IMG/VR virus record: IMGVR_UViG_3300027782_000058
Span: 1-64,000 of that record
Length of the DNA: 64,000 nt
Source of the DNA: a virus
Reading direction: 5' to 3' (one strand)
Shown piece by piece: positions 14,598 to 55,690 of this stretch. Position 1 is the first letter of the stretch, and every line of letters starts with the position of its first letter. Both the position numbers and the translations under genes were made by a program. The notes beneath the pieces were generated by a model. The model had not been told where the DNA came from. It did not search any database and saw only the letters and a program-made list of their open reading frames with translations.

Positions 14598-15656
14598 ATG
14601 ACACACACTACACTTGTCGAGAAGTACCGCCCTCTGGGCAACCTTGACCCCTCTGGGGTATCGCTCTACGAGCGCCTCATGGAGGTGTCTCTGCTCGCTG
14701 GCGATGAGAACGCTGCCATGCGGCTCAATGCTCAGGTGCTGCCTCAGGGACGCTATGCAGAGCGCGTGGCTGCTCGTCCTCGCGTGGCTGCTGCCACTGC
14801 TGCTGCTCTCGCGGGTGGCCCTGTCATCGCTAGTGGTGATGACGTGTTCGTCCGGCCCAATGGTGAGCAGTACCACGCTCGCTCATGGGGTGAGCATCAG
14901 GACGTGATGGTCCTCCGCAAGGCGCGTGAGCAGACCAAGAAGGCTTACCTCTCAGGTGGGTCTCCTATGTTCACGCTGATCTACGGGGAGCCCGGCTGCG
15001 GCAAGACTGCGCTCGTGGAGGCAGCGTTCGGGAGCGATCTCTACACGCTCATGGGCACTGGCGACACTGAGGTCTCCGACCTCACGGGAGGCTATGTCCA
15101 GACCCCGAGTGGCACGTTCGTCTGGATCAATGGCGACATGATTCGCGCCGCCATCGAGGGCAAGGTCTACTTCATTGACGAGATCGGACTGGTTGACTCC
15201 AAGGTTCTGTCGATCCTCTACGGACTCATGGATGGACGCCGCGAGATCACTGTCAATGCCAACCTTGAGATGGGTTCGATCAAGGCCCACCCTGACTTCT
15301 ACGTCGTGGCTGCCACCAACCCCAACGCCCCCGGCGTTCGGCTCTCTGAGGCTCTCCTGTCGCGCTTCACCAATCAGGTGGAGATGACGACTGACTGGTC
15401 GCTCGCTCGCAAGTTGGGCGTCCCGACGACTGTCGTCACGGCAGCGCAGAACCTCAACAAGAAGCGCGACTCGCAGGAGTGCATGTGGGCTCCGCAGATG
15501 CGAGAGTTGCTCGCCTTCCGCGACATTGCGGAGACGTTCGGACTCAAGTTCGCGATCTCTAACCTGCTCGCTGCTGCACCTGAGATCGACCGGCCCATCG
15601 TGGCTGACGTTCTCACGCGGGTGTTCGGCGATGAGTGCAAGCCCGCCAAGATCTGA
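14598..15656 (+). CDS. MoxR/CbbQ-like AAA+ ATPase
   Basis: Walker A GEPGCGKT, Walker B YFIDEI, sensor ATNP, ALLSRF arginine finger. Confidence 0.92.
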   Translation: MTHTTLVEKYRPLGNLDPSGVSLYERLMEVSLLAGDENAAMRLNAQVLPQGRYAERVAARPRVAAATAAALAGGPVIASGDDVFVRPNGEQYHARSWGEHQDVMVLRKAREQTKKAYLSGGSPMFTLIYGEPGCGKTALVEAAFGSDLYTLMGTGDTEVSDLTGGYVQTPSGTFVWINGDMIRAAIEGKVYFIDEIGLVDSKVLSILYGLMDGRREITVNANLEMGSIKAHPDFYVVAATNPNAPGVRLSEALLSRFTNQVEMTTDWSLARKLGVPTTVVTAAQNLNKKRDSQECMWAPQMRELLAFRDIAETFGLKFAISNLLAAAPEIDRPIVADVLTRVFGDECKPAKI

Positions 15657-15798
15657 TCCCTAGCGGATCTTGGCGCTGGGTCGGGGAGTCGTTTGGGTGC
15701 GGCTCCCCGGCCCACCTAGGGAAGAATTGACAGCATCATAGACACCTGCTACTATCGTACTAATGCCGCAGGGAGCGGCCAACGACAGGAGAGACATA

Positions 15799-19359: not shown

Positions 19360-19642
19360 CGTTTCTGAAAAAATCAGAAAAGCCCCGTCCAAAAAATCTT
19401 TGGAGCCCCGACTTCGACAGCACACAAAACAAAAGACCCCCGCCCGTAGGCGAGGGTCTTTTCCCCGCTGCCACGGTCACCGCCCCCCCTGTGGGGCGAT
19501 GAAAACCTACTGGAGTGGGAGTGCCCGCTCTGCGGCTACGGGGACACGTTCGATCCCCACGCCTAACAGAACTTGACAGCAGCCCTGAACTATGATTAGA
19601 TATACATATCGGCAGGGAGCCGAAGCCACTAGGGAGGCAGAC

Positions 19643-20071: not shown

Positions 20072-20287
20072 GGGCAGGGCCAATGGACGTGAAGACGAAG
20101 GCGCTAGAGGCGCAGGAAAAAATCTTTGGACTCCGGGTCAGTCGGCTCGCTTACGATCAAGAGTTGACAAGACTCAGGAAGTATGCTTAAATAGCACTAT
20201 CAACAAAGCACAACCCCGCACCGTGACCCCTTCGGGGGAGACCGCCACACAAGCAGGGTGCATGAGGTTCTAGGACAGAGATGCACC

Positions 20288-20368
20288 GCTCCCATAGCGC
20301 GCTGGTTGCGCGACATGTGCAAGACGAGCAAGAGCATGGTAGGTGGGTTCGATTCCCGCATGGGTGGC
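20288..20368 (+). ncRNA. tRNA-like element at the 3' end of an ORF-less transcript (about 20195-20408)
   Basis: D-arm GCGC-GCTGGTT-GCGC; T-arm GTGGG-TTCGATT-CCCGC; acceptor-like CCCAT/ATGGG; aberrant anticodon arm; no CCA; promoter 20164; terminator 20370-20408. Confidence 0.6.
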
Positions 20369-20539
20369 TGGAAAAACTGGGCAGTGATCCTGTCCAGTTT
20401 TTCCTTTTGGGGGAGGAAGGAAAAAATCTTTACTCAGCACTCCTTCGCCGCCGGGAATCTTGACAACTGTCAGAGACCTATGCTTTAATGTACATGTCGG
20501 CAGGGAGCCGACAACCAAACGCCTAGGGAGGCGACAGAA

Positions 20540-20827
20540 GTGCAGACCACTAACCTCGACAAGAAGAACCGTTCTTGGTGCGCGTTCGAAGCCCTGTTCA
20601 TGCGTTACGAGCGGTCGGGGCGCAACGAGACCCTGCTCCCTCGCATGGCCATGCAGTCGGCTTTCGAGTGGGCGATGGACAGTGCGGAGCGCAAGGAGTT
20701 CTACGAGATGATCCTCTTCGCCGCGCAGACAGAGATCGAGGGCGACTACATGCTCCTCAATGAGGAGACCGGCGAGTACGAGTGGGCCACCGAGGAGCAG
20801 GCGAACGAGAGCCGCTGGAGGGCGTAG
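20540..20827 (+). CDS. Hypothetical protein
   Basis: Promoter 20460; CTAGGGAG RBS. Confidence 0.75.
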   Translation: MQTTNLDKKNRSWCAFEALFMRYERSGRNETLLPRMAMQSAFEWAMDSAERKEFYEMILFAAQTEIEGDYMLLNEETGEYEWATEEQANESRWRA

Positions 20828-20954
20828 GGCGGCGGGCAGGGTCGCTCCCTAGCGGCCCTGCCCATTCCTCTCGCCGACAGAAGTTGACAGCACTACAGAA
20901 GTATGGTTAGATAGAGATATCGGCAGGGAGCCGAAACGACACAAGGAGCCAAAG

Positions 20955-21122: not shown

Positions 21123-21357
21123 TCCCCAAACAAACAGCCCCGCTTAGGCGGGGTTTTTGTTGTTCCGAGGTGATGTAGGGCAGCAGAAAAAATCTTTACT
21201 CTGACTCCGGGGATCCATTTCGTCACGCGGACATTCCCCCACATCAAGGCAGTGAGAACATTTCCCCGCATCAGTAGGGATTGACAACTAAAGAACTTGC
21301 CTGCTAAGATTCACTTATTCGGCAAACAGCCGGGTTGACGCACATACGGAGGACATA

Positions 21358-22150: not shown

Positions 22151-22387
22151 ATGCCTGACCTAATGAACGCACCGCCCACCGACCGAGTGATCCTCGCCGT
22201 TACCGCACTTCACATGGAGTGGGAGGCAGCAGACAAGAACTTCACAGAGAGCATGGTGGAGGACACTGCTAAACGCTGGAGCCTGTCTGAGGAAGAGGCT
22301 GAGGACATCGCCAACTTCCTCTGTGAATTCGTCATGGACATGCGGGCTGATGCCGAGGATGATGGATTCGAAGGGGACGAAGACTAA
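22151..22387 (+). CDS. Acidic hypothetical protein
   Basis: AAGGAG RBS; very acidic. Confidence 0.7.
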   Translation: MPDLMNAPPTDRVILAVTALHMEWEAADKNFTESMVEDTAKRWSLSEEEAEDIANFLCEFVMDMRADAEDDGFEGDED

Positions 22388-22691
22388 CAAGAGGCGTAAG
22401 CCGTGAGTGCGCTTGTGCGGGAAAGATGGATATGCTTATGACCCGCTAACCACGGCAGCAGGAGGTGTTGGCGAACTCCCTGCGCTGATCCTGTCGAGAA
22501 GCCCCCGGACTCATACTCCGGGGGTCTTTCGTTTTCTTCCTCTGCTCGCCGGGTGACGGGGTAAAGATTTTTTCCTCTCGCGTGGAAACTGACCCGCGAT
22601 GGCTTCGCAATAGAACTTGACAACTGCTTCTCAAAGGAGTAACGTATGTCTTGTCGCTCCAACCGGGGGCGCGCGCCCAAGGGAGGCACCC

Positions 22692-22964
22692 ATGTCCGAC
22701 AGCCGCTACTCCAACGCCGCGCTTCGCGCGGACCTCAACTCCACCTCGCGCGGTCCCCGCGTGCGGGCAGAGATCCTGCTCACCGTGCCCGAGGAGGTGC
22801 GCGCGGAACTTAGCGCAGAAGCGTGGACACTCGGTAACCTGCGTAACGGTGGCCGACCCTCTGACGACCTGCGCGAGGCCGTCCGCGTCTGGCGTGAGAC
22901 CGGGAAGTTCCCCGCCCGCGCCTACGCGGCAGAGTGGCGCGAGCGCAATCAGCGTCGCTTCTGA
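22692..22964 (+). CDS. Hypothetical protein
   Basis: Promoter 22616; CAAGGGAGG RBS; terminator 22975-23005. Confidence 0.75.
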   Translation: MSDSRYSNAALRADLNSTSRGPRVRAEILLTVPEEVRAELSAEAWTLGNLRNGGRPSDDLREAVRVWRETGKFPARAYAAEWRERNQRRF

Positions 22965-23046
22965 TCCGCAAGCGAAGGGACTCCCCTCCGGGGGAGTCCC
23001 TTTCGTATGCCCGGAGCAGTTAGGAAAATTCTTTGATACACTCGCG

Positions 23047-23140
23047 GTGTCTGCTTGAGCAACTCCCTATGCTCGTGGACACAGGTGGGACCCCCGCCGC
23101 GACTAGCGCCGTCACTCCCTAGACGGCGCTAGTTGCTTTA
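23047..23140. ncRNA. Candidate structured RNA with two identical ACUCCCUA hairpin loops
   Basis: GAGCA-actcccta-TGCTC (23057-23074) and ACTAGCGCCGTC-actcccta-GACGGCGCTAGT (23102-23133); TACACT -10 at 23037; no ORF. Confidence 0.65.
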
Positions 23141-23170
23141 CAGGGTTCTTTTCTGGGATATGGTTCCGAC

Positions 23171-23422
23171 ATGAGCGAATACCAAATTGTGGACCGAGCG
23201 TTTCATCATAACGGGAACGCGGTGCCGTTCGTCGCTGCACTTGTTGACGACGCCGAGAACGATGACGTAAAACTGGTCATCATGTTCGAGGACGAGGATT
23301 ACACCGCAGTTTTCTCACTCGACCGACTTCTTGATGATGAGGACATCTCAGCCAAGACCAACTCGTGGAGCGGTAGTCGATTCGAGTTTCTTCGAGACCT
23401 GCTCTGGAACGACGAGAACTAG
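23171..23422 (+). CDS. Hypothetical protein
   Basis: FHHNGN..PF motif; acidic. Confidence 0.7.
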   Translation: MSEYQIVDRAFHHNGNAVPFVAALVDDAENDDVKLVIMFEDEDYTAVFSLDRLLDDEDISAKTNSWSGSRFEFLRDLLWNDEN

Positions 23423-29940: not shown

Positions 29941-30207
29941 CCCTCACGAAGTACGGCCCCCACCTACGGGTGGGGGCTTTTCGTTTTCGCGCGACGGGAG
30001 GACTGGTAACCCTCTCGCCGAAAGGCCCTCGCCGAAAGGCGGGGGCCTTTTCGCGTGCGAATGCGGGCCGGGTGATGGGAGGTGGCGAAACTTTTTTTCC
30101 GGTCATCGCGCGCGAGGTCGCTACGCGCGGGACAACTTGACACTCGGTAGGATGTTCGATAAGGTAGGACTACCGCCCAACCGGGGCGCACAACCTAGGG
30201 AGTCGAA

Positions 30208-39990: not shown

Positions 39991-42900
39991 GTGAAGGACA
40001 ACATCGATGGCGCAAGCGCCAAGTCGACAGCCCGACTCAATGCTCGGATTGATGCGCTGGTCGCGTCTGCGAATGATGGAACCCCGGCCCAGCGTCGGGT
40101 GAACCTTGGTGCTGCCCGTGAGGTGGTCCGACGCTCGCTGAAGTCAACACAGGGTAGGGCATTCTCTCAGCGCGAACACATCGCACTGACAGCGCTCTCG
40201 CACTTCATCACTCTGGCACAGCGTGACAAGTCAGTCGCGCTCTACCCGGCCAACACTGACCTTCTTCCTCTCGGCCACCCCCGGTCGACCGCTTCCAACG
40301 CCCTCACAGCCTTCGCCCTCCGCGAGCACCGCGCTCGCTGGTTTGCCGCTGACCACCGCGTCTTGGACGAGCACCGCGCGCTGGTTGCGTCTGCTCTTGC
40401 TGCTGAGTACGGCTCGATGGAGCACTTCTACGCGCTCTCGATGCTGGAGCAACTGAACGATGGCTCCGCCCTCGTTGCCCTCGTTGCATCCTTCGGTGAC
40501 GGCAACTCGCGTGCTGCCCGTTCGGCTCGTGCCCGTCGTCAGCGCCGCGACCGTTTCGGTCGATTCGCCTATCAAGGCGGCGGTCTCCGCAGCCTTCTCC
40601 GCTTCGGAGACGGCAGCGTTCGCTCGCTCACTGGTAGTTATGTCAAGGACTCTGATGACGGTGAGTCGTTTGATGTCGAGACCCCGGACGGAACCCTCTA
40701 CCGGATCCCAGCGAGCAAGGCCGAGTCTGTCAAGGCCGTACTTTTTGACAGTCCCGATGGCTTCAGTCCCATGCCCGCCAAGTATGACTCATCTGATCCG
40801 ATCATCGACGTTGCTGACCTTGTCAAGATTGACATGCCATCCGGCTACATCGAGAAGTCTCGCGACAAGGATGGATCGGTCACATACGGTCTGGCCAATG
40901 GTGACGACTACCTGATTCGTGCGACTCCTGCAGGCAACGGCACGACTGCGTACGAGGTCGTGCGGAATGATGGCAAAGACACCCCGGTTGGTCTTGCCAG
41001 CAACTGGTCTGACGTACACAAGATGGTTGTGCAAGACGGCAAGAAGGCCAACCGCGAGGACGCCGCCAAGGCTCGTCTTGAGGGCAAGTCCGGTCCTGAG
41101 TCTGACTACCTAGACTTCCTTCCCGATGTCAACATCGCGGCCAAGGATGAGGGCAGCGAGGTTCGTCGTCAGGCACAGTCGATCATGGACTTCTTCGAAC
41201 TGGATGAACTTCCAGATGGAATGTCCGCCCAGCAACTGGCCGACCGCACACGTCTGAACGCTGATGCTCTCAAGGATGGCTCGCTCAAGGGCGGCGAAGA
41301 CCTCGCTCAGGACTTCTACGACGCTGCTGACGCCATCGAGCGCAAGTCTGGTCTCGCCAAGCCCGAGAAGAAGGCCGACCTGACCCCCGCTCCCTCCACT
41401 GCCCCAGCCCCCGAGGCCGGTAAGTGGGAGCCCAGCGACACCCGCATTGACCTGCCCTACAAGGAACCGATCATCGGCCCGGACGGCAACCTGACCGGAG
41501 AGTACAAGGACGGAACGGCGAATATCGTAGACATCAATGGCCGCAAGGTCGTGGTGGTGGATATCAACGGAACTCCTGTCCCCTTCTACCTGTCTTCCGG
41601 CGACGGCGGCAAGAAGGATGTAGAGGCTGGTAAGTGGTACCCCTTCTTCGGCTGGGGCATGGACGGCTGGATGAACAAGGGTAAGTCCGACGAGATCAAC
41701 GACTACTACGGGTCTCCTGAACTCCGGGCGCAGGCCGAGTGGCTCGACGCGAACATCGGAGATATCCGAGACGACAAGAGCATCCCGCGCGATTCCTCAA
41801 GTCAGGGCAACCTCGACATGTGGATCAACGATCACGTTGGTCTCAAGCCTGCATCCAACGACACCCCCACCACACGCACTGAGTTCGACGCAAACGTCGC
41901 TGAGATCAAGCGTCGGATTGAAGCAGGCAATGGTGGCTCCAACAAGGAGCAGGCCCGCCTAGATGCCACTCCTACTCCAGAGTCAGGAGGCACATCGGCC
42001 TCACCGGAGCAGATCGCCGAACTCCGCAGGCTGATGGACGAGCGTAATGTTCGTGATAACGTTCCCGATCTTGCCGATGGCATCGAAAAACTGATCGCGG
42101 ACAACACCCTAGGTAAGGAACAAGCAGACCGGCTGATCAGTGGAATCAGGGAAAACCGGGACGTGTTCCCTGAGCCCGACACCACTCCCGAGAAGGCTCC
42201 CAGTAAGTCCGACGACTTCAACGCACCTGAGGGCGCTTACGCGCTGAACCAGACTGCAATCGACAACTTCGAGCCTCAGGGTCGCGTAGATGAGAGCAGT
42301 ACGGACTTCACCGACGACCCCTCCGAACTCGCGCAGCGGTTCGACACAGATGACCTGACGGCTGCTCTTGAGCAGGCCCTCATCGGTGAGGACGGCGCTG
42401 ACGGCGACGTTCAGGGCCGTGGTGCTGGCAATCTCCAGTTCAACAGGGGAGACGAGTGGGTTCCTGCTGAGGCGCTTTATCAAGCACTCGACCAGCAGGA
42501 CGAGGATGCCCGCGCCATCGCCAACGATATCTACGACAGTGCGCGCAAGGGTCAGATGAAGGAGCAGGCCCGCCTTGACGGTGCTCCGCTTCCTGAGAAG
42601 GCGACCAAGGATGAGACTCCCGTCTCTGCCCCCGAGAAGCCAGCGGCGCAGTCTGAGATGAAGCCTCTTAAGGAACTGAAGAAGGGAGATGTGGTTCGCT
42701 TAGAGGACGGCACTCTTCGCACTGTCTCTGAGGTCTATGGCGTCCGTAGTTACAATTCGAGGACCAACAGTTTCGATGGATCCACCGAGGTCGAATTCAC
42801 TGACGGCTCTACCATGCGTCGTTCTAACGAGGATGCGCGGAACAAGCCTGACTTCGAGGTAGTTTCGTCCGAGTCCGAGTCCGGCGTCAACATTCCAGAG

Positions 42901-45900
42901 AATCTCCCTAGCCTGCTGGAAGACCTGTCTCCAGAGGACCGCGCTAACTACGAGCAGACCGGCGACTACCGTCCCTACCTGCCCGAGAACGCAGACATTC
43001 CTGACTACCCGTCTTCCATGTACCAGATGGATCAGTCTCCTCTGTCGCCAGAAGAAATTGGCCCGCTGGCGGAAGACGCCCCGCAGGGGTTCGACAACGA
43101 CCCGATGCGTCTGGCAACGGAGTACAACTCTGAGACGCTCACTGAGGAACTCACCAATGCTCTGACCGGCGATAACGAGCGCGACCTAGGCTACGGCTAC
43201 TTCGGCTACACGGATGAGAATGGCGAGGAGTGGGCGGGCAACATCCCCGCCGAGGCCATCCGTGACGCGCTTCAGTTGCAGGGTGTCAACACTGATCAGA
43301 TCGTTCAGGATGCAATTGACAAGACAGCCAAGGCCCCAGAAGGAGTAGAAGTAGACGTACCAGAAAAGCCATCGCGTGAGCCTTCAGCAGAGCCTCTCAC
43401 TGATGTCCGGTACAGCGATGCGATCCTGCTGTCCAACCCTGAACTGCAGAACTCCATCGACGCTGCCCTTGAAGATGCCATGAACGAGGGCCGCAACATC
43501 GGCAGGAACGCCACTCGCTCCTCTGCCAATCGACTCGAAGTCCTGCTGAACGAGCAGGCCATGCGTCGGGCTGGCGCATCTCGCGCTGATCGTGTGAAGG
43601 CTCAGCGTCTGCTGGAGCAGATTCAGGCCCTGCGTGACACCAACATGCCCGCTGACTTCAGCAAGCCCTCGATGCGTGGCGGTAAGAAGGATCAGGACAA
43701 GGAGAAGAGCCTTGTCGATCAGTTCAACGCCATCCCCGGCGTAAGCCAGCAGCGCTACAGGCTCGACACCCCCAGCAAGACCGTCGAGAAGCAGGGTGGC
43801 GTACCCAGTCTCTACGCTCCGTCAACAATTGAGGTCGCACCCGGCCTCAACTGGGAGCAGCGCGATAATGGCCGGTCAAAGGGTGGAAAATTCGGATCCC
43901 AGTCTGGAAGCACCTACATCATCTCTGGCTCCCGCGCCAAGGATCTCAATCCTGACGAGATGAAGAAACTCGGATTCTACTGGGATGAAAACTCTCAGTC
44001 ATGGATCAACTACAACGGTGCTGTTGGCAATATGTCCTCCAAGGACAAGAAGAACATCACTGACTCCCTCAGCAAGTCCGGATTCGATGTCAACCCTGCA
44101 TTCACCAATGGAGGCTTCATTCCTTCATGGCTCAGGGACTCCGCTGACGTTGTCAACCCGAAGATTGTTGAGACAGTGTCGGCTCCTAGGCCGCGTCGTC
44201 CTTCTCCCCCCGGTCGTCCGATCACGGATGGAAGGCTTCGCGACCTGCTGGAGCAGGCTGACGGTGACCCCAAGAAGTTCCGTGAACTTCTTGGTAAGGA
44301 GAACGTCCACGTCTTCGACTTTGAGACGACCGGCATCCGGTTCGACGAGAACGGGAACATGATCGACTCCGGTGAACCGTGGGCGATTTCGGTTGCGCGC
44401 TACAACCCGGCCACGGGTGAGATGGAGCAGAAGACCTTCTACATGAACCCCGGCCAGTCCATCAAGGACACTTGGGCTGGCGGGACGAATGAAGACGGCA
44501 GTCCTCGCGCCATTGACTCAGATGGAAAACCGCTCACTGACGAGTGGCTCGCACAGCAGCCTTCGCAGGCTGAGGCTCTGCAGGCCGCTCTTGATTTCAT
44601 GGGTCAGGATCCGATCCTGTTCGGGCACAACTCAACCTTCGACCACGACACGTTCACCCGCAAGGCGGACGAACTCGGTCTGGACTACCGCCCGGCTGCC
44701 ATTGGTGACACGATGAGCCTTTCTCAACTGGTGCATGATGGCGAGCAACTGCCATCGCACTCGCTCGGTTATCTGGCCAAGCATCACGGGATTCCCAGTC
44801 AGGGCACCGCGCACACGGCTGATGCTGACACCCGCACGACTGCTGCGCTGCTCGACAAGTTGCTCACGAAGGCCGAGCGTGCAGAACTCGGCATGACGCC
44901 GGAGAACCTCGACAGGTGGCAGGGTAAGAACGAGGATCGATACAACAAGGCACTGGCTGACTACAACGAGGCCAATGCCCCACGGGTAGCCACTGAGGCA
45001 GTCCTTGAGGCCGCTCAGGATCCGACTGAGGTTCCTTCTCCGGAAGAGACCTCTGCCCGCGTTGACAAGATGATCAAGGACATGTCTGGCAACCCTGATG
45101 GTGCGCCTAACCCTGAGACAGACATCGTTGATGAATCATCAGATGGAGCCGAACCGCTTCCTAACGGTTACAGCCGTAGCAATCTGCATGAGTTGGCTCA
45201 GTCGGCACTGGATGAGTTTGATCGCAACAGTGATATCAACAGTTACACGCAGTTCACGCCTCAGGAGATCAAGGAGGTTCAGGACAAGATCGATGCTCTT
45301 CGTGAGATGTCCAATGACCCCTCGGTCAGCGACGAGCAGGTAGCCGCTGCACTGGATGACATCGCTGAAGACCTTGATGCAATGGTCAGCCGTCTCGGTG
45401 ACCCGAACGACGACCGCACTCCTCTGCGAAACATCGACATTATCGAGAATCTCAACCGAGAGCGGGACTACGTCACCGAGACCGCAGACATGCTGCGCGC
45501 TCGTAACGGCGAGAACAAGCCGGAGCCGGAGTCCGACGACACCACCAACGAGGTGGATGACGCACAGGTCCGCGACCAGATGGCTGGGGAGGCTGCCGGA
45601 ATTCGCAACATCGTCAACGAGACTGGCAGCACTAACGCCGACCTAACTGATGAAGAGCGCCAGAGGTTCTGGGACTATCAGACTCGCCTTGAGGAGGTCA
45701 TCGCTCTCGTTCGTGGCAACCGCAAGGACGAGATGGGTGACAGGGATCTGGCAACCTACGTCAACCGTGTGGCAATTGACCTGAAGAATGACTTCGGCCC
45801 CGGTGGTGAGTTAGAGGATGTCGCGTACTCGCGCGGCATGGACCGCAACAAGGTTGAGAACATTCTTGATCTGGCGGACAAGTTGGAAGTGCTCACCAAC

Positions 45901-48900
45901 CGGCTGATGCAGCAAGTCTTGGATCGTGAGGGAAGTAAACCTCCCGCAGTCCGCACGCCTGCCATACCAAAGAGTGGTCCCGGCTCGAAGCCTGAGGCAC
46001 CGACGAAGCCGGAAGACTCTGGACAACTCAAGCCGCTCAAGCCAGCCAACAACCCATCCCGAGATGAACTGATTGACATTCGAAGTAATTTTGACAGCCT
46101 CATGGCGAACGAGACTGACTCTGAAATTATTACAATGGGATCAGATATTTCAAATGCATTGAACGATGTGCTAGATCTCATCGAGGCCGATCCAGATGGC
46201 AAGAACCGCGAGACTGGTCGGTCACTGGACGCGCTGGCAGGAGACATTCAAGAGTTGGCAGATGTTGTCGAAGACGACAGGCTGAAGTCATTTGACGGAC
46301 TACTAGACAGAATCCGCACTCTTTCACGCGCATATCGTCGTCGTAACCGCGAACAACGTGGGGGTAACGGTACTGCCCGTAACCGCCGTCAAACTCCCGC
46401 AGCGCCTAAGAGCGAGCCGGTTGACACCCCGGAGACGAAGCCGGGACCAGACGCTCCAACTGTCACTAGAAAGGCTCAGTTTACTAACCCGGACACTGGA
46501 GCACGGTCAGAGAACTGGACTCTCAGTAACGGTGACCAAATTATTGCTATTGATTCCGTCACTGGTAGTGGGATTGCCACGGTTTACTATCACGATGATG
46601 AGCCTGAGGTCAGGCGTTGGGACACTGACAACTTCGCTGAGGCTCTTCAACTGCACCTCGCTGAGCGCAGTGGCAACTCCTCCTCCGCATCTCGGGAGAT
46701 CACGCAGCCGAACCCGTCGAACCTCCCACCAGAGGTCAAGGTTGGGAAGACTGGCAAGACTGGTGTTGGTGCCAAGGTTCCCGACGCTCCCGGCGAGCGT
46801 GCGGTCGGCATCACCAACGGAGCCGACCTTCCCAGTGCGCCTCCTCCCCCGAACAGCGATGGGCCGGTAGGCCCGAACGGGGAGCGGCTGCTTCGTCGTG
46901 GCCGGGAGAATCGCAACTTCTGGGATCACCCGATCATGCAGAGTTGGGCGCGTCGTCGATTCCGCAAGCCGCTTGAGGGTCAGTTCGTCGACCGGAGCCG
47001 TGTGCCGATTGCCTACGGAGACCGCGTCGTACACACTAACCCGAAGGCCGCTCGTTCGACTCTTCGTCCAGACGGCACTCCAATGACAGGTGTTGTCCTC
47101 AACCGTCAGGACAATGTTGGTCGCGAGAATGGCCACAACCGTGACCACGTCACGGTTCAGTGGGAGAACGGAACAGTGTCACACTACGTTTCCCACAACC
47201 TGCAGATCGTCGGACTCACTGAGGCTGACACTGAGTGGCGTACCCTCGTGCATCCTGACGAGACTCCTGACACTCCTGAGTCTGAGCGTATCGACCTACC
47301 GGCTGGCTTCGACTGGAACCAGAAGCGTCGAGGAGCAGCGCCATCTGGACGTATGGGACCAAATGGCAGGCTATCTGGAGAGGGTCGTGGGCAGAACAAC
47401 ATCCCTGTCGAGGCCGGAGACGAGTCCACTCGCTTCGAGCGAGGCGAAGGTGTAGAGGGTCTGATCGCTGACTTCAACGGCGTACAGATTCAGGTCGGCG
47501 ACCGCGTCTACCACCGAGGCAAGGTAGGATCACGTCGCGGGCTCACTGGCGGAACAGTGATCGGGAAGAAGTACATCGCCCGGTACCGCACGATCACGGA
47601 CGAGAACGGTAACAAGAAGCGAGTCCGTGTCGGCTACGCCTACCAGCCTATCGTCCGCTGGGACAACGACCCCGAGATTAAGGAGTGGTCGGCCAATCAA
47701 CTGATCGTCACGACTCCTGATGCTGAATCTCGGAATGTCTCAGATGCGCCGATCCCGACCCTTCGTCGTGAAGGACGCGGAGCGAGTTCTAAGTGGGTTC
47801 CTGACACTGAGGCACCGGACTACAACGCCGATTCGGCTAGTGGGTTCGAGCCGATCCCGGCAAACGGCGGAGGTTCTGGGGCTCCTTCGACTCCAACCCC
47901 CTCCCGCTCTCGCCGAGTCCAGCCCTCCGGAAATCGACCGGGATACGAGTTCGTTGGCTCTAGAGAAGTTCTCTTCATCGGAACGTCCGAGCAGATCAAT
48001 CGTCTCATCGATAACTATGCTGTCGATGACCAAGAGGCGGAGTTGTTCCGGTCTGAGATCGTAGACGACACCAACCCCGATGGCACGCAGAGTGGTAACG
48101 ATCAGATTATTCTGTCAATTGACCAAGGCGTCACCAATAGTGGGAAGACACCCAGAGAGTACGTTGAGGGCGTTCTCGACGAGACATTCGGTTCTGCCTC
48201 TTCAGGCACCAGCCCGACTTCCTCCACACCAAACGCCCCGGAAGCAGATACCTCCACTCCTGACGATGGAATGGTGGTGCAGCCTAAGGACAAGAACGGT
48301 CAGTTGCTCGACCTTGGTGACATTGTCGAAGCCAACAACGGCAAGCGAGGCATGGTTCGAGGCTTCACTCCAGACGGCAAGGTGCGAGTCAAGTACGAGG
48401 ATGGCCGTTACGGCAAGTTGAATGCTGACAAACTATCTCGCACTGGCCAAACGACACGCGGTCCTGCTGACCCAACCGGCGCTGTCGGCGAACCCGTCGA
48501 GGGTGAGTTCGGTGAGTGGGGTGCCCGCGCTGAGAAGATCCGTGAGGCCAAGAACCGTGGTCCGGCAGATCTTACTGATCTGATTCAGCGAGGTGATGAT
48601 GCCCTACCTCCGGGCAAGACCCTCAAGGACTTGATGCAGGAGGTCTGGGGCCTTGAGCACAAGTACAAGGACAAGGACGGCAATGAACGAAGCCTACGGG
48701 CCGAGGTCACTGGCGCTCACGTCTCTCGCGGCAGGCAGATCTCGGTCTCGATGAGAATTCTTGATGAGAACGGTCGTGTGGTTGGGACGATGAGTCGCCA
48801 ACTCAAGATGGATAATAACGGCAATCTGTCTGTCTACCACGCATATTTTGAGATCACTGACAGCAAGCGTCAGGGCACTGGCTTTGCAACGGCTATCAAC

Positions 48901-49356
48901 CGCTACGCCGAGGACTTCTACATTGCTCAGGGCGTTCGAGAGATCGGTGTTCAGGCTGCTCTTTCGAACGGTGGTTACACTTGGGCCAAGCAAGGCTTCG
49001 AGTGGGACCACCCACACTACGGGACTCCGTGGGCTGACCCTCTGAGGAGGCTGGGAGAGTACGGTCGAAGAGGAAACATGTCCCCGGCGCTGAGGAAGGT
49101 CTACGATGACCTAATGTGGCGTTTCCGCAACCTAGACCCAAGTGATCCCAACTTCCCGACTCCGCAGGAAATCGTCATGTTCGGATGGACACCCGGAGCC
49201 ACTTCTTGGCCCGGAAAGTCGATCCTTGTTGGATCTGGTTGGTATGGCGTCAAGCGTCTCAGGCCCGGTGGTCGCAGGACCACTCAGGGCGAGCGCGATA
49301 ATGGCAAGTGGTGGCATGACCAGATCTTCAGGCGGAACAACCAGAGGAAGGCGTAG
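39991..49356 (+). CDS. Giant (3121 aa) multidomain virion-cluster protein with DEDDh 3'-5' exonuclease, KOW/SH3-like repeats and C-terminal GNAT-like domain
   Basis: FDFETTG (44314), GHNSTFD, HTADAD (44812); GD(R/V/I)V repeats; RQGTGFA..GGYTWAKQGF. Confidence 0.85.
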   Translation: MKDNIDGASAKSTARLNARIDALVASANDGTPAQRRVNLGAAREVVRRSLKSTQGRAFSQREHIALTALSHFITLAQRDKSVALYPANTDLLPLGHPRSTASNALTAFALREHRARWFAADHRVLDEHRALVASALAAEYGSMEHFYALSMLEQLNDGSALVALVASFGDGNSRAARSARARRQRRDRFGRFAYQGGGLRSLLRFGDGSVRSLTGSYVKDSDDGESFDVETPDGTLYRIPASKAESVKAVLFDSPDGFSPMPAKYDSSDPIIDVADLVKIDMPSGYIEKSRDKDGSVTYGLANGDDYLIRATPAGNGTTAYEVVRNDGKDTPVGLASNWSDVHKMVVQDGKKANREDAAKARLEGKSGPESDYLDFLPDVNIAAKDEGSEVRRQAQSIMDFFELDELPDGMSAQQLADRTRLNADALKDGSLKGGEDLAQDFYDAADAIERKSGLAKPEKKADLTPAPSTAPAPEAGKWEPSDTRIDLPYKEPIIGPDGNLTGEYKDGTANIVDINGRKVVVVDINGTPVPFYLSSGDGGKKDVEAGKWYPFFGWGMDGWMNKGKSDEINDYYGSPELRAQAEWLDANIGDIRDDKSIPRDSSSQGNLDMWINDHVGLKPASNDTPTTRTEFDANVAEIKRRIEAGNGGSNKEQARLDATPTPESGGTSASPEQIAELRRLMDERNVRDNVPDLADGIEKLIADNTLGKEQADRLISGIRENRDVFPEPDTTPEKAPSKSDDFNAPEGAYALNQTAIDNFEPQGRVDESSTDFTDDPSELAQRFDTDDLTAALEQALIGEDGADGDVQGRGAGNLQFNRGDEWVPAEALYQALDQQDEDARAIANDIYDSARKGQMKEQARLDGAPLPEKATKDETPVSAPEKPAAQSEMKPLKELKKGDVVRLEDGTLRTVSEVYGVRSYNSRTNSFDGSTEVEFTDGSTMRRSNEDARNKPDFEVVSSESESGVNIPENLPSLLEDLSPEDRANYEQTGDYRPYLPENADIPDYPSSMYQMDQSPLSPEEIGPLAEDAPQGFDNDPMRLATEYNSETLTEELTNALTGDNERDLGYGYFGYTDENGEEWAGNIPAEAIRDALQLQGVNTDQIVQDAIDKTAKAPEGVEVDVPEKPSREPSAEPLTDVRYSDAILLSNPELQNSIDAALEDAMNEGRNIGRNATRSSANRLEVLLNEQAMRRAGASRADRVKAQRLLEQIQALRDTNMPADFSKPSMRGGKKDQDKEKSLVDQFNAIPGVSQQRYRLDTPSKTVEKQGGVPSLYAPSTIEVAPGLNWEQRDNGRSKGGKFGSQSGSTYIISGSRAKDLNPDEMKKLGFYWDENSQSWINYNGAVGNMSSKDKKNITDSLSKSGFDVNPAFTNGGFIPSWLRDSADVVNPKIVETVSAPRPRRPSPPGRPITDGRLRDLLEQADGDPKKFRELLGKENVHVFDFETTGIRFDENGNMIDSGEPWAISVARYNPATGEMEQKTFYMNPGQSIKDTWAGGTNEDGSPRAIDSDGKPLTDEWLAQQPSQAEALQAALDFMGQDPILFGHNSTFDHDTFTRKADELGLDYRPAAIGDTMSLSQLVHDGEQLPSHSLGYLAKHHGIPSQGTAHTADADTRTTAALLDKLLTKAERAELGMTPENLDRWQGKNEDRYNKALADYNEANAPRVATEAVLEAAQDPTEVPSPEETSARVDKMIKDMSGNPDGAPNPETDIVDESSDGAEPLPNGYSRSNLHELAQSALDEFDRNSDINSYTQFTPQEIKEVQDKIDALREMSNDPSVSDEQVAAALDDIAEDLDAMVSRLGDPNDDRTPLRNIDIIENLNRERDYVTETADMLRARNGENKPEPESDDTTNEVDDAQVRDQMAGEAAGIRNIVNETGSTNADLTDEERQRFWDYQTRLEEVIALVRGNRKDEMGDRDLATYVNRVAIDLKNDFGPGGELEDVAYSRGMDRNKVENILDLADKLEVLTNRLMQQVLDREGSKPPAVRTPAIPKSGPGSKPEAPTKPEDSGQLKPLKPANNPSRDELIDIRSNFDSLMANETDSEIITMGSDISNALNDVLDLIEADPDGKNRETGRSLDALAGDIQELADVVEDDRLKSFDGLLDRIRTLSRAYRRRNREQRGGNGTARNRRQTPAAPKSEPVDTPETKPGPDAPTVTRKAQFTNPDTGARSENWTLSNGDQIIAIDSVTGSGIATVYYHDDEPEVRRWDTDNFAEALQLHLAERSGNSSSASREITQPNPSNLPPEVKVGKTGKTGVGAKVPDAPGERAVGITNGADLPSAPPPPNSDGPVGPNGERLLRRGRENRNFWDHPIMQSWARRRFRKPLEGQFVDRSRVPIAYGDRVVHTNPKAARSTLRPDGTPMTGVVLNRQDNVGRENGHNRDHVTVQWENGTVSHYVSHNLQIVGLTEADTEWRTLVHPDETPDTPESERIDLPAGFDWNQKRRGAAPSGRMGPNGRLSGEGRGQNNIPVEAGDESTRFERGEGVEGLIADFNGVQIQVGDRVYHRGKVGSRRGLTGGTVIGKKYIARYRTITDENGNKKRVRVGYAYQPIVRWDNDPEIKEWSANQLIVTTPDAESRNVSDAPIPTLRREGRGASSKWVPDTEAPDYNADSASGFEPIPANGGGSGAPSTPTPSRSRRVQPSGNRPGYEFVGSREVLFIGTSEQINRLIDNYAVDDQEAELFRSEIVDDTNPDGTQSGNDQIILSIDQGVTNSGKTPREYVEGVLDETFGSASSGTSPTSSTPNAPEADTSTPDDGMVVQPKDKNGQLLDLGDIVEANNGKRGMVRGFTPDGKVRVKYEDGRYGKLNADKLSRTGQTTRGPADPTGAVGEPVEGEFGEWGARAEKIREAKNRGPADLTDLIQRGDDALPPGKTLKDLMQEVWGLEHKYKDKDGNERSLRAEVTGAHVSRGRQISVSMRILDENGRVVGTMSRQLKMDNNGNLSVYHAYFEITDSKRQGTGFATAINRYAEDFYIAQGVREIGVQAALSNGGYTWAKQGFEWDHPHYGTPWADPLRRLGEYGRRGNMSPALRKVYDDLMWRFRNLDPSDPNFPTPQEIVMFGWTPGATSWPGKSILVGSGWYGVKRLRPGGRRTTQGERDNGKWWHDQIFRRNNQRKA

Positions 49357-51193: not shown

Positions 51194-54100
51194 GTGGGCT
51201 ACTTCGGTAGGTCTGGCGATCTAGCGCTGTTCGTGTTCGACGAACTGGGTGTCGTCGTGGACGAGGGGCTCAACCTCGTCGTGGAGAAGGGGCATCTGGA
51301 TGCCCTGATCGCTTCCGGCGACTGGAACACTGACGACTCTGAATACTCCAAGGCGGCAGAGGACATCGCGCAGGCGTCCATCACAGATCTCGATATCCAC
51401 GTCTTCTCGTCTAATGACCGTCTCTACACGATCCCGAAGTCCGTCCAATCGGAGGCCAAACGTGCTCTTGAGTGGAGGAAGACGCACAAGCGTGGCGGAA
51501 CTCCAGTAGGACTAAACACCGCTCGCACTCTGGCCGAGGGTGGACAGATTGGGATCAAGAAGATCCGCCACATCGCTCGCTACTTCCCTCGTCACGAGGT
51601 TGATAAGCGTGGCCAAGGGTACAAACTGGGAGATAAGGGATTTCCCAGCAACGGTCGAATCGCATGGGCTCTCTGGGGAGGGGACGCTGCACAGAAGTGG
51701 GCAGCGACTATCGTAGAACGAGACGACAAGAAGAAAAAGTCTCTCACTGCTGATGGACTTCCTTCCGAGTACTTCGAGCCGAGCAGCAGTCGATTTGACT
51801 ACTTCCGAATGGCAGAAAATCTGCCTGCTGAAGAGGCTCCGGAGTTCATGGCCCGAGTCCGTCTCGACGGGAGCGGGATTGACCGCATCTACATGATGGA
51901 TGCTGATGGGATCGTCTACATCTGGGACGACGGATCTTGGGATGACCTAGGTCTGTTCGAGCAGGACATCATGTCATTTGATGCTTTCTTCGACATGCCA
52001 GACGACGACGTAGACACCATGTACGTTCCAGTGGACGCTGAGGCTGCTGTCAAGATCTGCGCCCTCATCGATGCTGAGCCGTTCTCCCCCAAAAACACTA
52101 GCGACTTCTCTTCTGACGAAGAGATGCTAATGGTACATAGCGCCCTGTCCGAGATCGACTGGGACGAGGTCGACAGGGTTCTGGTAGCCGCTGGTGAGGC
52201 TCCTGCAGCAGATGCCCCCGCCGACCAGCCTCAGGGGGATGGCAACTACACCCCGGATGAGCGCTCCAAGAATGCGTCCAAGCAGGTTCGTGACGCGACT
52301 GGCAAATTCTCGAAGAGCGGATCACGAGTAGTTGTTGGCAATGACACGAACTCCCGTGGAACGATCACGTCGATCAATCCTGACACTCAGACTGTCGACG
52401 TACAACTGGACAACGGAAACACTGTCACCGTCCCCGGAACTGCCACTCAGGGGGAGGACAAGTTCGTAGACGTGTCGGCAGAGAACGAGACCAACATGAC
52501 TGTCCCTCCGAGTGCCACCGCTGGCATTCTAGGCCAGCCTCGCGTCCCATCAAATCAGCCGAATGCTCGTATCCCCGGCATGCTTCCCCCTCTCACTGGA
52601 GAAAGCATCTCTCTGCTGCTCAATGACTGGCCTGCATGGGTTGCAGCCGAGCGTGAGTTGTACCGGCAGACCGCTCCCAAGACTCCCCCGAACATCGGTC
52701 CGCGCCAGTACAACGTTCCCCAGCGGGACAACACTGGTGTAGATGTCCGAGACCCCTCCACCGGAGGCACTCGAAACGTCGCATGGAATCCGATGCAGGC
52801 TCCCAACGCATACAACCACCCCCTGCTGCGCGACTGGCTGAAAGGCAGCGACCGTCACGGCCACCCAAACCGTGGATGGTACAACCCAATCGTTCGCAGG
52901 AACGTGATCGAGCCCCGCAGGTACTTCTCCGCCGAGGTTCTCATCGCTGCTGGTGCCGAACATCCTGAGGTGCAGGAGATCAAGAAGCCTGATCCCAATG
53001 CTCCCAAGGCAAAGTCAGGCCCTGACTTCACACCTGAAACCTCTGACGTTCCTCCCATGTACATGGCCATCGTCGCTCAGGATGATCCTCAAGCCGTCAT
53101 GGACCTGATCTCTCTGGTTCCAGTGAACTCCCAGTCATCCACTCCGACCATCTTCCGCAGGGAGCCCGGTGAGTGGGTCAAGGATGATGCCATCCTCGCT
53201 GACCTGAACTCTCCCACGCCTCCACCAGTGGTTGTGCTGGACAACAAGAACCTAGCATCAGTGGTCGAGCAGATCGACCAAGCCTTGGTGGCATCTGCCT
53301 CTTATCTGCTTGACCGTCGTCTTGCTGATCTCTGGATCAGCGGTGCTGATGTCATGGCGATTGTCGCTGCTGGTGGCGTTGACCGCAACCGTGGCAACGC
53401 TGAGAAACTACGTCGGTACTGGACTGTTGGTGAGGGTGGAGCGAAGATCCGCTGGGGGACTGGCGGAGACTGGAAGCGCTGCGTTCGCCACCTGTCGAAG
53501 TATCTCGGTCCGCGTGCGAAGGGCTACTGCAACCTTCGTCACAAGGAGATGCTGGGCATCTACCCCGCTACCCACGCGAAGCGCCTCCGCGAGAACTCGA
53601 TGGAGCAGCCTCTATACATGGAGGTTCCAGACTCTGACCTGCAGATGCCCATCGAGGCCATTCATGCTGAGGAAGACAAGAACTTTGATCACGAGTGGGA
53701 GCCAAACGAAGAAGTCGTTTGGATGCTCATCGAACTCAAGGATCTTGATGACGACACGTTCAGCCTAGTAGCCGCTGGCGGTCTAGACCGCAATCGCGGA
53801 AACGCTGAGGAGTTGCGCCGCTACTGGACGGTCGGCAAGGGTGGAGCCAAGATTCGCTGGAACACCAAGGGCGACTGGACCCGCTGCACACGTCATCTTG
53901 CCAAGTACCTAGGCCCACGAGCCAAGGGCTACTGCGCTCTCCGCCACAAGGAGATGACAGGTATGTGGACCGGAGATCAGGCTCACCGTCAGATGTACGG
54001 GCGCAAGTCTTTCAGCACCGACTTCATCCTGCCTGAGCAGCAGATCATCGAGAACGCTGCACTGTCTGCTCAGATCGCCTCTGCCAAGGCCCGTATCTCT

Positions 54101-55690
54101 GGTGTCACTGCTTCCGGCAGCACTCCTGAGTACGGCTCTGCATTCTTCATCCCTCTGGTCATCCCTGAGCAGATGGAGTCTGGTGATGGACGGAAGTTCA
54201 CCAAGGACGCCATCGACATGCGTCAACTCCCTCTCCCCCTGCTGTGGCAGATCAAGACTGGAGCCGGGCACGACGGTTCGGTTGTGGTTGGAAAGATCAC
54301 GCACATGCAGCGGACTAAGGATGGCATCGGTCATGCCTTCGGCGTCTTCGACAACGGAGAGCATGGACGCGAGGCTGAGCGCCTTGTCCGTGGCGGCTTC
54401 ATTCGTGGTGTCTCCGCAGATCTGGACCGATTCGAGGCAAGTGAAGAACCTGAGGAAGCCTCAGGTGACGACTCCAAGAAGATCGGCTCAAGCAAGATCA
54501 ACATCACAAAGGCCCGCGTAATGGCCGTTACCCTTGTACCTAAGCCAGCATTCCAAGAATGCACGATTGAACTCATTCCAGACATGGCGCATAAGCAGCA
54601 GGAGGAAACCGTGGTACCTGACGGAGTGTATGTCGAGGATTCGGATGCCGCCGAGGCTTCCGCGCTGCTCGCTTGCGGAATGGTTGCCGGTGCGATTCCG
54701 GTAACTCCGCCGAAGGAGTGGTTCACCAACCCCGGACTGTCCAAGCCGACTCCCCTCACCGTTGATGAGGAGGGCCGAGTGTTCGGTCACATTGCCGCAT
54801 GGCATGTGGACCACATCGGCATGTCGTTCGGAACTCGTCCTCCCCGAAGCGCCAGCCAGTACGCCTACTTCCACACTGGAGTCATTCGTACTGAAGAGGG
54901 CTCAGACGTTCCGGTTGGTCAGTTGACACTGGCTGGAGGGCACGCCTCTCTGGAGGCAAGCGCCTCCGAGGCCGTTCGTCACTATGACGACACTGCCAGC
55001 GCCATCGCTGATGTCCACGCAGGCGAGGACAATCACGGCATCTGGGTAGCCGGAGCCCTGCGCCCCGGAACCACTCCCGAGCAGGTTCGTGCGCTGCGCG
55101 CTTCTGCCCCATCCGGTGACTGGCGTCCGATCAAGGGCAAGTTGGAACTGGTTGCCGTGTGTCAGGTCAATGTTCCCGGCTTCCCCGTCGCCCGCGCGCG
55201 TGTGGCGTCTGGTCAGGTTCTTGCTCTGGTTGCCGCTGGGGCAAACACTCTGGCGAAGATGAAGGGCGATCCGGTAGCCGAACTAGCCGCTCGGATCGAC
55301 AAATTGGAGCAGTTGGAGAAGGCTCCTCTGGTTGCTGCCGCTGAGGCTGCCAAGGCTCGCATCGCATCAGTCCGGGCTGCTGAACTGAGCGCCCGAGTGC
55401 ATGGCACCGGAGAGTTCGCAATCTCAGAGGAGACTCGGATGCGTCTGGCCGGGGAGGGCAAGGCTCTGCCTGACGGCTCCTACCCGATCCGCAACGTCTC
55501 TGACCTCAAGAATGCGATCAAGTCCTACGGGCGGGCCAACAAGAGCGACCGGGCCAAGGTCCGCAAGCACATCACGAAGCGGGCCAAGGCTCTGGGTCAT
55601 CCTGAACTGATCCCCGATGAGTGGACCGCTGCTTCCATTCTTGAGGCTCGCGTCGCCTCCGCCATGACGGAGGAGCCAAGTGCCGAGTAA
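51194..55690 (+). CDS. Capsid maturation protease polyprotein (1498 aa)
   Basis: ESGDGR..LPLPLLWQ..GHDGSVVVG..RGVSADLD..TLVPKPAF protease-like domain; second GRVFGH..SGDWR..VNVPGF domain; duplicated LRRYWT module; directly upstream of the capsid genes. Confidence 0.8.
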   Translation: MGYFGRSGDLALFVFDELGVVVDEGLNLVVEKGHLDALIASGDWNTDDSEYSKAAEDIAQASITDLDIHVFSSNDRLYTIPKSVQSEAKRALEWRKTHKRGGTPVGLNTARTLAEGGQIGIKKIRHIARYFPRHEVDKRGQGYKLGDKGFPSNGRIAWALWGGDAAQKWAATIVERDDKKKKSLTADGLPSEYFEPSSSRFDYFRMAENLPAEEAPEFMARVRLDGSGIDRIYMMDADGIVYIWDDGSWDDLGLFEQDIMSFDAFFDMPDDDVDTMYVPVDAEAAVKICALIDAEPFSPKNTSDFSSDEEMLMVHSALSEIDWDEVDRVLVAAGEAPAADAPADQPQGDGNYTPDERSKNASKQVRDATGKFSKSGSRVVVGNDTNSRGTITSINPDTQTVDVQLDNGNTVTVPGTATQGEDKFVDVSAENETNMTVPPSATAGILGQPRVPSNQPNARIPGMLPPLTGESISLLLNDWPAWVAAERELYRQTAPKTPPNIGPRQYNVPQRDNTGVDVRDPSTGGTRNVAWNPMQAPNAYNHPLLRDWLKGSDRHGHPNRGWYNPIVRRNVIEPRRYFSAEVLIAAGAEHPEVQEIKKPDPNAPKAKSGPDFTPETSDVPPMYMAIVAQDDPQAVMDLISLVPVNSQSSTPTIFRREPGEWVKDDAILADLNSPTPPPVVVLDNKNLASVVEQIDQALVASASYLLDRRLADLWISGADVMAIVAAGGVDRNRGNAEKLRRYWTVGEGGAKIRWGTGGDWKRCVRHLSKYLGPRAKGYCNLRHKEMLGIYPATHAKRLRENSMEQPLYMEVPDSDLQMPIEAIHAEEDKNFDHEWEPNEEVVWMLIELKDLDDDTFSLVAAGGLDRNRGNAEELRRYWTVGKGGAKIRWNTKGDWTRCTRHLAKYLGPRAKGYCALRHKEMTGMWTGDQAHRQMYGRKSFSTDFILPEQQIIENAALSAQIASAKARISGVTASGSTPEYGSAFFIPLVIPEQMESGDGRKFTKDAIDMRQLPLPLLWQIKTGAGHDGSVVVGKITHMQRTKDGIGHAFGVFDNGEHGREAERLVRGGFIRGVSADLDRFEASEEPEEASGDDSKKIGSSKINITKARVMAVTLVPKPAFQECTIELIPDMAHKQQEETVVPDGVYVEDSDAAEASALLACGMVAGAIPVTPPKEWFTNPGLSKPTPLTVDEEGRVFGHIAAWHVDHIGMSFGTRPPRSASQYAYFHTGVIRTEEGSDVPVGQLTLAGGHASLEASASEAVRHYDDTASAIADVHAGEDNHGIWVAGALRPGTTPEQVRALRASAPSGDWRPIKGKLELVAVCQVNVPGFPVARARVASGQVLALVAAGANTLAKMKGDPVAELAARIDKLEQLEKAPLVAAAEAAKARIASVRAAELSARVHGTGEFAISEETRMRLAGEGKALPDGSYPIRNVSDLKNAIKSYGRANKSDRAKVRKHITKRAKALGHPELIPDEWTAASILEARVASAMTEEPSAE

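Follow-up and report, generated by a model that had tools for sequence, protein, structure and literature searches.

Conserved three-hairpin RNAs with C-rich loops in a presumed phage of Actinobacteria: candidate anti-Shine-Dalgarno small RNAs

In RsaE/RoxS and in RNAIII of Staphylococcus aureus, unpaired UCCC or CCCC loop motifs pair with the Shine-Dalgarno (SD) sequences of several mRNAs and block initiation. Phage T4 assigns the switching of its early genes to the RegB nuclease. To our knowledge, regulatory RNAs of lytic phages have hardly been described, and none is known for the large freshwater group of phages of Actinobacteria. In the bacteria themselves, the 6C small RNA uses C-rich loops to bind G-rich ribosome-binding sites with no chaperone (PMC6486639). 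Its targets include the AGGGGGG site of panD and G-rich loops in 5' untranslated regions, contacted by loop-loop or loop-to-single-strand G-C pairing, and its overexpression leads to growth arrest through the C-rich loops (PMC6486639). C-rich stem-loops have also been proposed as alternative terminators in Actinobacteria, in work cited in PMC6486639.

The locus described here lies in the IMG/VR record IMGVR_UViG_3300027782_000058, which is 91 kb long and estimated to be 54% complete; the first 64 kb of it form the window, that is, the whole stretch of DNA that was analysed (64,000 nucleotides). By capsid similarity the phage groups with large phages of Actinobacteria. Its capsid is 76% identical to that of the metagenome-assembled Actinomycetia phage DSL-LC01 (PMC10611076) and 50-56% identical to the capsids of Microbacterium and Arthrobacter phages. 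A row of small cassettes occupies the + strand between 8 and 35 kb, each consisting in order of a TTGACA-N18-TAnnnT promoter, a short 5' hairpin, an SD box, a small gene and a GC hairpin. The SD box is very uniform (cTAGGGAGg), with a spacing of 5-9 nt to the start codon. Beginning at 37 kb, the late (virion) genes have ordinary GGAG-type sites. The head gene cluster includes a 3121-aa protein (39991-49356) with a DNA-polymerase-type exonuclease domain at residues 1437-1663 and a 1498-aa protein (51194-55690), the C-terminal part of which matches the PHROG portal protein and head maturation protease families. No tRNA or tmRNA was found in the 64-kb window. The element under study occupies the + strand interval between the stop codon of the gene at 22693-22964 and the ATG at 23171, which contains the following features.

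22975-23002, + strand: GC-rich hairpin of 12 pairs with loop TCCG, read from the sequence, 11 nt past the stop codon (22962-22964) of gene 22693-22964
23023-23042, + strand: RNA promoter, made up of a degenerate A-tract box GGAAAATTCTTT with an extended -10, TGATACACT (23034-23042), immediately after it
23047-23082, + strand: hairpin P1, with outer stem 23047-23054/23075-23082, a TT bulge, inner stem 23057-23061/23070-23074 and loop ACUCCCUA at 23062-23069
23084-23098, + strand: hairpin P2, GGUGGG/CCCGCC with loop ACC
23099-23136, + strand: hairpin P3, 15 pairs with loop ACUCCCUA at 23114-23121
23137-23154, + strand: U-rich tail (UUUACAGGGUUCUUUUCU) directly after P3, overlapping the -35 of the next promoter
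23137-23164, + strand: promoter TTTACA-N16-TATGGT found by promoter scan, with the ATG of an 83-aa gene 6 nt after the -10 (unit 23137-23173)

The hairpin at 22975-23002 is the presumed terminator of the upstream gene and was left unflagged by a consensus terminator scan because a clean T-run is absent. This hairpin and the TACACT at 23037-23042, which is part of the extended -10 TGATACACT, had both been recorded in the initial annotation and are indeed present. The same is true of its first hairpin with an outer extension, which corresponds to P1 (23047-23082), of its perfect 12-bp stem, which extends to the 15 pairs of P3, and of the identical 8-nt loops on differing stems, ACTCCCTA at 23062-23069 and at 23114-23121. 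Its two-hairpin architecture had to be revised to three hairpins, P2 having been omitted. The inner stem of P1 is GAGCA/TGCTC around ACTCCCTA, with two G-T pairs in the outer stem. The core of P3 consists of 12 perfect pairs, ACTAGCGCCGTC/GACGGCGCTAGT, around the loop ACTCCCTA, and the P3 loop together with its closing G reads CUCCCUAG, the exact complement of CUAGGGAG.

The + strand from 23040 to 23175 folds with -66.9 kcal/mol and z = -6.1, equalled by 0 of 200 shuffles, and the - strand of the element folds more weakly (z = -3.2). ACTCCCTA occurs six times in the window against 1.09 copies expected, a number reached by none of 100 shuffles. Among hairpins of the 91-kb record with stems of at least 8 pairs, loops of 6-10 nt are a minority, and the 8-nt C-rich loop of the element is unusual compared with the tetraloops common in the terminator hairpins of this phage. 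The description of the element as ORF-less holds, in that it has no conserved ORF: a 17-codon frame at 23068-23121, from an AUG that ends loop 1 to a UAG within loop 2, probably arose by chance from the two loop sequences because it is missing in the related contig L002 described below. As an intrinsic terminator P3 offers a strong 15-pair stem but is followed by UUUACAGG and was not flagged by the consensus scan. Of the 12 bases that follow P3, 4.5 are T in the family as a whole, the background being 3.0. The tail being only mildly U-rich, termination at this point is plausible but unproven, and P3 probably doubles, on weak support, as the terminator of the RNA.

The promoter at 23023-23042 contains no -35 hexamer. 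An extended -10 occurs at equal distance in the relatives L002 (TGCTATGCT) and L202 (TGGTATCGT). Of the 44 unique members of the family described below, 36 have a TANNNT whose last base lies 5-9 nt before P1, compared with 6.4% at random positions, and a TGn-extended -10 is found in 27 of 44, compared with 0.5%. The transcription start is predicted at about 23048-23050, the foot of P1. A box, GAAAAAATCTTT, of which there are about 20 copies between 2236 and 35700 of the window (0.15 expected), abuts the -10 of the RNA promoter in the window, L002 and L202. Other copies lie in terminator-to-promoter spacers at variable distance and in both orientations, for example at 9581, 10041, 20116, 20420 and 21186 and, inverted, at 22563 and 26039. 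In low-GC relatives, GGGGTAAAAAnTTTTT is found some 25 nt farther upstream.

The second promoter, downstream of P3, is separate and belongs to the next gene. From its distance to the ATG, the mRNA of the 83-aa gene is leaderless and has no SD site. The gene is also leaderless in L002 and L202 (TATCGT, 7 nt, ATG; L002 2975-3003) and in the relatives grouped as clade D (TAGTCT, 6 nt, ATG; L265 2965-3003). The 83-aa protein is very acidic and has no match in Pfam or PHROG. It is followed by a gene for a 190-aa HslV-like peptidase (PHROG 1040), which as a query retrieved no related loci in IMG/VR.

A search with the 83-aa protein yielded one relative in IMG/VR, L002 (68% identity), which carries the element one gene further upstream of the 83-aa gene. 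Its P3 has the stem sequence of the window and the loop CCUCCCUA, and its P1 has the loop ACUCCCUAG, so that the two loops of L002 differ from each other. Between the window and L002, two pairs of P1 are changed on both sides (U-A to C-G and A-U to G-C) and four are switched between G-C and G-U, with none broken. A protein search and a metagenome scan added 80 further loci from lakes and estuaries, with GC contents of 38-59%; the closest protein relatives include P0001, which is 98% identical. Most of these 80 loci contain, upstream of the gene and on its strand, an element of some 100 nt with three hairpins, whose stems are unrelated in sequence and whose loops are C-rich. The sequence of P2 is variable across the family, its loop elsewhere often being ACCCU or UCCCU. 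Where at least 1.2 kb of sequence precedes the 83-aa gene, 52 of 62 loci have the RNA. It lies 29-85 nt before that gene in the window and 18 loci, and many loci have another gene in between.

The family was reached only by way of these metagenome relatives of the neighbouring gene. A covariance model built from the window and L002 (R1) was too specific and found no match in 47 capsid relatives, and a paired CTCCCT pattern likewise found nothing. A second model (R2), built from 12 low-GC members with the window left out, recovered both the window (E = 0.004) and L002 (E = 0.003). After iteration (R3), 56 matches were obtained on the + strand of 82 sources and 4-5 among 48 capsid-related viral contigs; the E-values of these models are rough. 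All credible R2 and R3 matches are on the gene strand, and every member of the family stems from an uncultured metagenome contig. R3 found no match in DSL-LC01 or six near-complete relatives, nor in the five cultured phages Atuin (Arthrobacter), Pumpernickel, Cece, Phendrix and A3Wally. In GenBank phages, neither the region (megablast and blastn) nor the 83-aa neighbour (tblastn) was found, and a search with a clade-A RNA by blastn gave only a chance 36-nt match. The exact pattern of the second hairpin occurs in IMG/VR in the L002 contig alone. A looser pattern, ACTCCCTA-N30-60-ACTCCCTA, gave at least 113 stretches in IMG/VR, all of which were chance or unrelated repeats after a hairpin test.

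In the R3 alignment, which is fitted to the model, all 32 modelled pairs show compensatory changes, including 7 of 7 in P2 and 15 of 15 in P3. Of the aligned cells, 90.5% are paired, compared with 41-49% when the partners are slid by 1-3 columns, and the covariation score is 0.816, compared with at most 0.157 in the slid controls; the observed values are reached by 0 of 500 shuffles. A plain MAFFT alignment of 12 members gave compensatory changes in 9 of 21 RNAalifold pairs. G-U pairs are common, one P3 pair being G-U in 29 of 44 sequences, and this, together with the confinement of credible matches to the gene strand, fits RNA and not duplex DNA. The element thus belongs to a conserved structured-RNA family that is absent from Rfam, and it has the generic properties of a small-RNA gene: a promoter of its own at the 5' edge, no conserved ORF, covariation and a fixed strand. 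Structure, conservation, strand, promoter, loop motif and complementarity are all computed results, and they support the initial reading of the element as a small RNA, here an independently promoted structured RNA from the + strand. The proposed Rfam search gave no family, and the covariance model built from homologous loci gave one of 56 loci. Homologous loci, in which the initial annotation had expected identical loops, keep the hairpins with differing stems and C-rich loops, but the identical 8-mers were not retained (L002 has ACUCCCUAG and CCUCCCUA), the common element being the C-run YUCCCU.

The family was compared with the RNAs introduced above. It resembles 6C (B11, RF01066) in its length of about 90-100 nt, in its three predicted loops, the conserved ones being rich in C, and in its presumed host phylum, Actinobacteria. 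It differs in being phage-encoded, with the phage's own early genes as proposed targets, and in its helix layout, P1 being a two-part stem. Its loops have 3-6 C (YUCCCU), unlike the long C-run in loop L3 of 6C (UCCUCCCCCCCU). By the 6C criterion of two loops with long C-runs, the family loops are C-rich, with only CCC in the window (ACUCCCUA) and CCCCC(C) in clade C and L227. An Rfam scan of the whole window at the gathering threshold returned nothing, and with the limit relaxed to E = 1, a scan that took in the window locus (L001) and seven relatives placed no family on the element, 6C included. With E up to 10, RF01066 matched the 91-kb record only at 30017-30061 and 19433-19460, not at 23047-23142; its gathering score is 47 bits, and Corynebacterium in the control set also fell below that cut-off. 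Membership in 6C fails because there is no covariance-model match. The best-supported reading is one of analogy, in which the phage RNA would act on G-rich sites as 6C does. With RsaE/RoxS and RNAIII, which are from Firmicutes, the phage RNA would share C-rich hairpin-loop motifs directed toward SD sequences. It differs in phylum, size and architecture, has no Rfam match, and the flanks of its C-runs match a phage-private SD extension (CUA...). A sponge of the CsrA/CsrB/RsmZ type was considered and rejected, as the loops are pyrimidine-rich (YUCCCU) and contain no GGA; the only Rsm match is a 20-nt sub-threshold one elsewhere, at 21136-21155.

CCC is present in the loop of P1 (L1) in 33, of P2 (L2) in 29 and of P3 (L3) in 34 of 43 unique members, and L3 is CUCCCUA in 13 unique members. 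The feature of the family is thus a C-run, YUCCCU, at each tip, and the two identical 8-mers are a special case of the window. There, ACUCCCUA in L1 and L3 is the Watson-Crick complement of the early SD box. The initial annotation had proposed that both AGGGA sites of early leaders could be engaged, and the loops do complement the early-gene box, (C)UAGGGAG, as well as the AGGGA loops in the 5' hairpins of early genes.

8188-34628, + strand: proposed target set, 22 early genes with the SD box (C)UAGGGAG(G) plus seven leader hairpins

TAGGGAG occurs 23 times on the + strand, 22 of them before early genes at 5-9 nt from the start, and is followed by ATG in 19 of the 22 occurrences within 8-35 kb; the box is missing at all 13 late-gene starts examined. 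Hairpins with the loop C-AGGGA-G are found in seven 5' leaders, at 13372, 15769, 19613, 20501, 20924, 21720 and 32742. Predicted duplex energies with the 22 early start regions are -12.2 kcal/mol for L1 and -14.2 kcal/mol for L3, compared with -5.9 and -6.4 kcal/mol, respectively, with the 13 late ones. The corresponding value for an assumed actinobacterial 16S tail with the early start regions is -10.6 kcal/mol.

Other members of the family have other SD sequences, and the flavour of each clade was obtained by a scan, independent of gene calls, for words preceding ATG.

Window and G001: SD flavour CUAGGGAG, L1 ACUCCCUA
Clade A: SD flavour GAAGGGA, L1 AUUCCCUUC
Clade B: SD flavour UAAGGGG, L1 without clear match
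Clade C: SD flavour GAAAGGGGG, L1 UUAUCCCCCUUUCA
Clade D: SD flavour GAAAGGAC, L1 without C-run
Clade E: SD flavour AAGGGAGA, L1 UUUUCUCCCUU
G036: SD flavour AAGGGGA, L1 AAUCCCCUUUCC

L1 appears to follow the local SD flavour in most clades. When 7-mers were swapped between clades, the own-clade value was the highest for L1 and L3 of the window and for L1 of clades B and C but not for clades A, D and E, the loci within a clade being non-independent. Three RNA-bearing, capsid-related contigs scanned whole (G026, G037 and G003) have the genome-wide SD consensus GAAAGGA, which the loop CUCCCU matches over four pairs only. Part of the match is generic, as any C-rich loop complements purine-rich ribosome-binding sites.

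Loops of this kind are also found at the 3' ends of two early genes.

15644-15675, + strand: hairpin of 12 pairs with the near anti-SD loop AUCCCUAG, over the stop of gene 14598-15656 and followed by a second hairpin of 15 pairs
20834-20863, + strand: hairpin of 11 pairs with the anti-SD loop CUCCCUAG, just past the stop of early gene 20540-20827

Both loops, AUCCCUAG and CUCCCUAG, complement the SD box of the gene that they follow (14598-15656 and 20540-20827, respectively). They may allow 5'-3' pairing within one mRNA or be further carriers of anti-SD loops, and they could equally act in cis on their own messages. Judged by sequence, anti-SD loops are a recurring theme in this phage.

We propose that the element is the gene for a trans-acting anti-SD small RNA of the phage, a reading that we consider somewhat better than evenly balanced. 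The transcript would be about 92 nt in the window (roughly 23049-23140, + strand) and about 95 bases overall, starting from its own extended -10 at the foot of P1 and probably ending at P3. Its three hairpins would display C-runs at their tips, two of which are ACUCCCUA in the window, and the loops would pair with early mRNAs through G-C-rich loop-to-single-strand or kissing contacts. Two types of site are envisaged, the private SD box CUAGGGAG of about 22 early genes and the AGGGA loop of the early 5' hairpins. By hiding the ribosome-binding site, pairing would affect how efficiently the early genes are translated or how stable their messages are, most likely lowering one or the other. Late genes, which rely on GGAG sites, and the leaderless neighbour, which has no site, would both escape. 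We infer the transcript, its binding, its targets and the direction of its effect from this arrangement. A more elaborate version, which we put forward tentatively and would not expect to hold in full, treats the RNA and the private SD tag as a co-evolving pair. The early tag would be CUAGGGAG here and GAAAGGGGG or AAGGGAGA in other clades, each faced by two or three matching loops, and the multivalent RNA would clamp both the tag and the second, 5' AGGGA loop that often accompanies it, switching the whole early set off (or on) while sparing late and leaderless genes. If so, it would be an RNA-based temporal switch doing the job that T4 gives to the RegB nuclease.

The same small RNA might instead be aimed at the host, mimicking a host small RNA of the 6C/B11 type and shutting down genes with G-rich sites, such as the replication and secretion genes repressed by 6C, for takeover of the cell. 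The capsid places the phage with phages of Actinobacteria, where 6C is a conserved RNA, growth stops on overexpression of 6C by way of the C-rich loops (PMC6486639), L3 of 6C (UCCUCCCCCCCU) resembles the L002 loop CCUCCCUA in flavour, and the CUCCCU loop is kept in contigs whose overall SD consensus is GAAAGGA. We nevertheless think it unlikely, given that RF01066 misses the element at E up to 10, and at E up to 1 in the seven relatives, and that L1 follows the SD flavour of the phage clade, which a mimic directed at the host would not need. Conserved C-rich loops on variable stems could also be recognition sites for a protein, the RNA then being a scaffold, a decoy or sponge, or a signal for processing or antitermination. 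Retention of loops while the stems covary is equally a hallmark of hairpins recognised by proteins, similar loops cap the 3'-end hairpins of two early genes, and throughout the family the RNA stays closely associated with a single small gene. The P3 stem, identical between the window and L002 despite 68% identity of the neighbouring protein, could likewise point to protein recognition. Against this, the very acidic 83-aa protein, unmatched in Pfam and PHROG, is unlikely to bind RNA, the loops do not contain GGA and so do not form a sponge of the CsrA/RsmA type, and their drift with the SD flavour of the clade is more simply explained by RNA-RNA pairing; we rate protein binding as rather improbable.

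Action in cis must be weighed too. The element might insulate or terminate the upstream cassette or form a stable 5' leader for read-through into the next gene, its anti-SD loops either masking the ribosome-binding site of that gene or being incidental. With the weak U-tail after P3 the RNA could read into the next gene, which begins 29-85 nt downstream in the window and 18 loci, hairpins with the same loop end other early genes, and an alternative-terminator role has been suggested for C-rich stem-loops of Actinobacteria (as cited in PMC6486639). A dedicated promoter placed exactly at P1 in most members and a second promoter after P3 speak against it; moreover, the downstream gene is leaderless, with no SD to mask, in the window, in L002/L202 and in clade D, many loci have another gene between the RNA and the 83-aa gene, and termination does not need three hairpins with conserved loops. 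A cis role is to our mind distinctly improbable. Finally, the perfect 12-bp inverted repeat of the second hairpin and the intergenic position would suit an element that acts as DNA and is never used as RNA, with an origin, a packaging signal or a protein operator formed by cruciform or single-strand hairpins. The frequent G-T pairs would be A-C mismatches on the other strand (the P3 pair that is G-U in 29 of 44 sequences among them), the - strand folds worse and credible model matches are all on the gene strand, stems that differ in sequence between clades leave no fixed operator sequence, and a promoter is conserved at the 5' edge. On the strand, G-U and promoter evidence we reject a DNA operator or cruciform, to which we assign hardly any probability.

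The anti-SD reading, which we favour, gives the RNA family, with its strong covariation, defined promoter and more than 50 members, a concrete candidate target in a ribosome-binding tag common to about 22 early genes. Should the pairing prove real, a whole temporal class of genes would be marked by a private SD variant and governed by one small RNA, a simple design for the timing of expression that might also be put to use for orthogonal control of translation in Actinobacteria.

Two other ORF-less stretches of the early region were inspected. After the gene at 22151-22387, the stretch 22388-22540 has a weak hairpin with loop AACUCCCUG followed by a terminator (22501-22525); it folds no better than shuffles (z = -1.8), R3 has no match there, and it was set aside. 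A unit at 20160-20410, bounded by a TTGACA promoter and a strong terminator (20378-20410), includes a tRNA-like T-arm, GGGTTCGATTCCCGC. ARAGORN and Rfam gave nothing convincing for it (tRNA-Sec at 16.9 bits, E = 4.5), and as a structured RNA it was likewise rejected, the fold of 20195-20410 being no better than that of shuffles (z = -1.9).

In one relative, L206, the RNA is preceded at a distance of about 45 nt by two tRNA genes of the same strand (74 and 70 bits; 1250-1400). Two capsid-related contigs have weak second R3 matches about 1.1-1.2 kb from the main copy, at 2705-2813 in L285 (E = 0.0002) and at 2670-2745, on the - strand of the locus, in L282 (E = 0.009), and these may be paralogous copies of the RNA.
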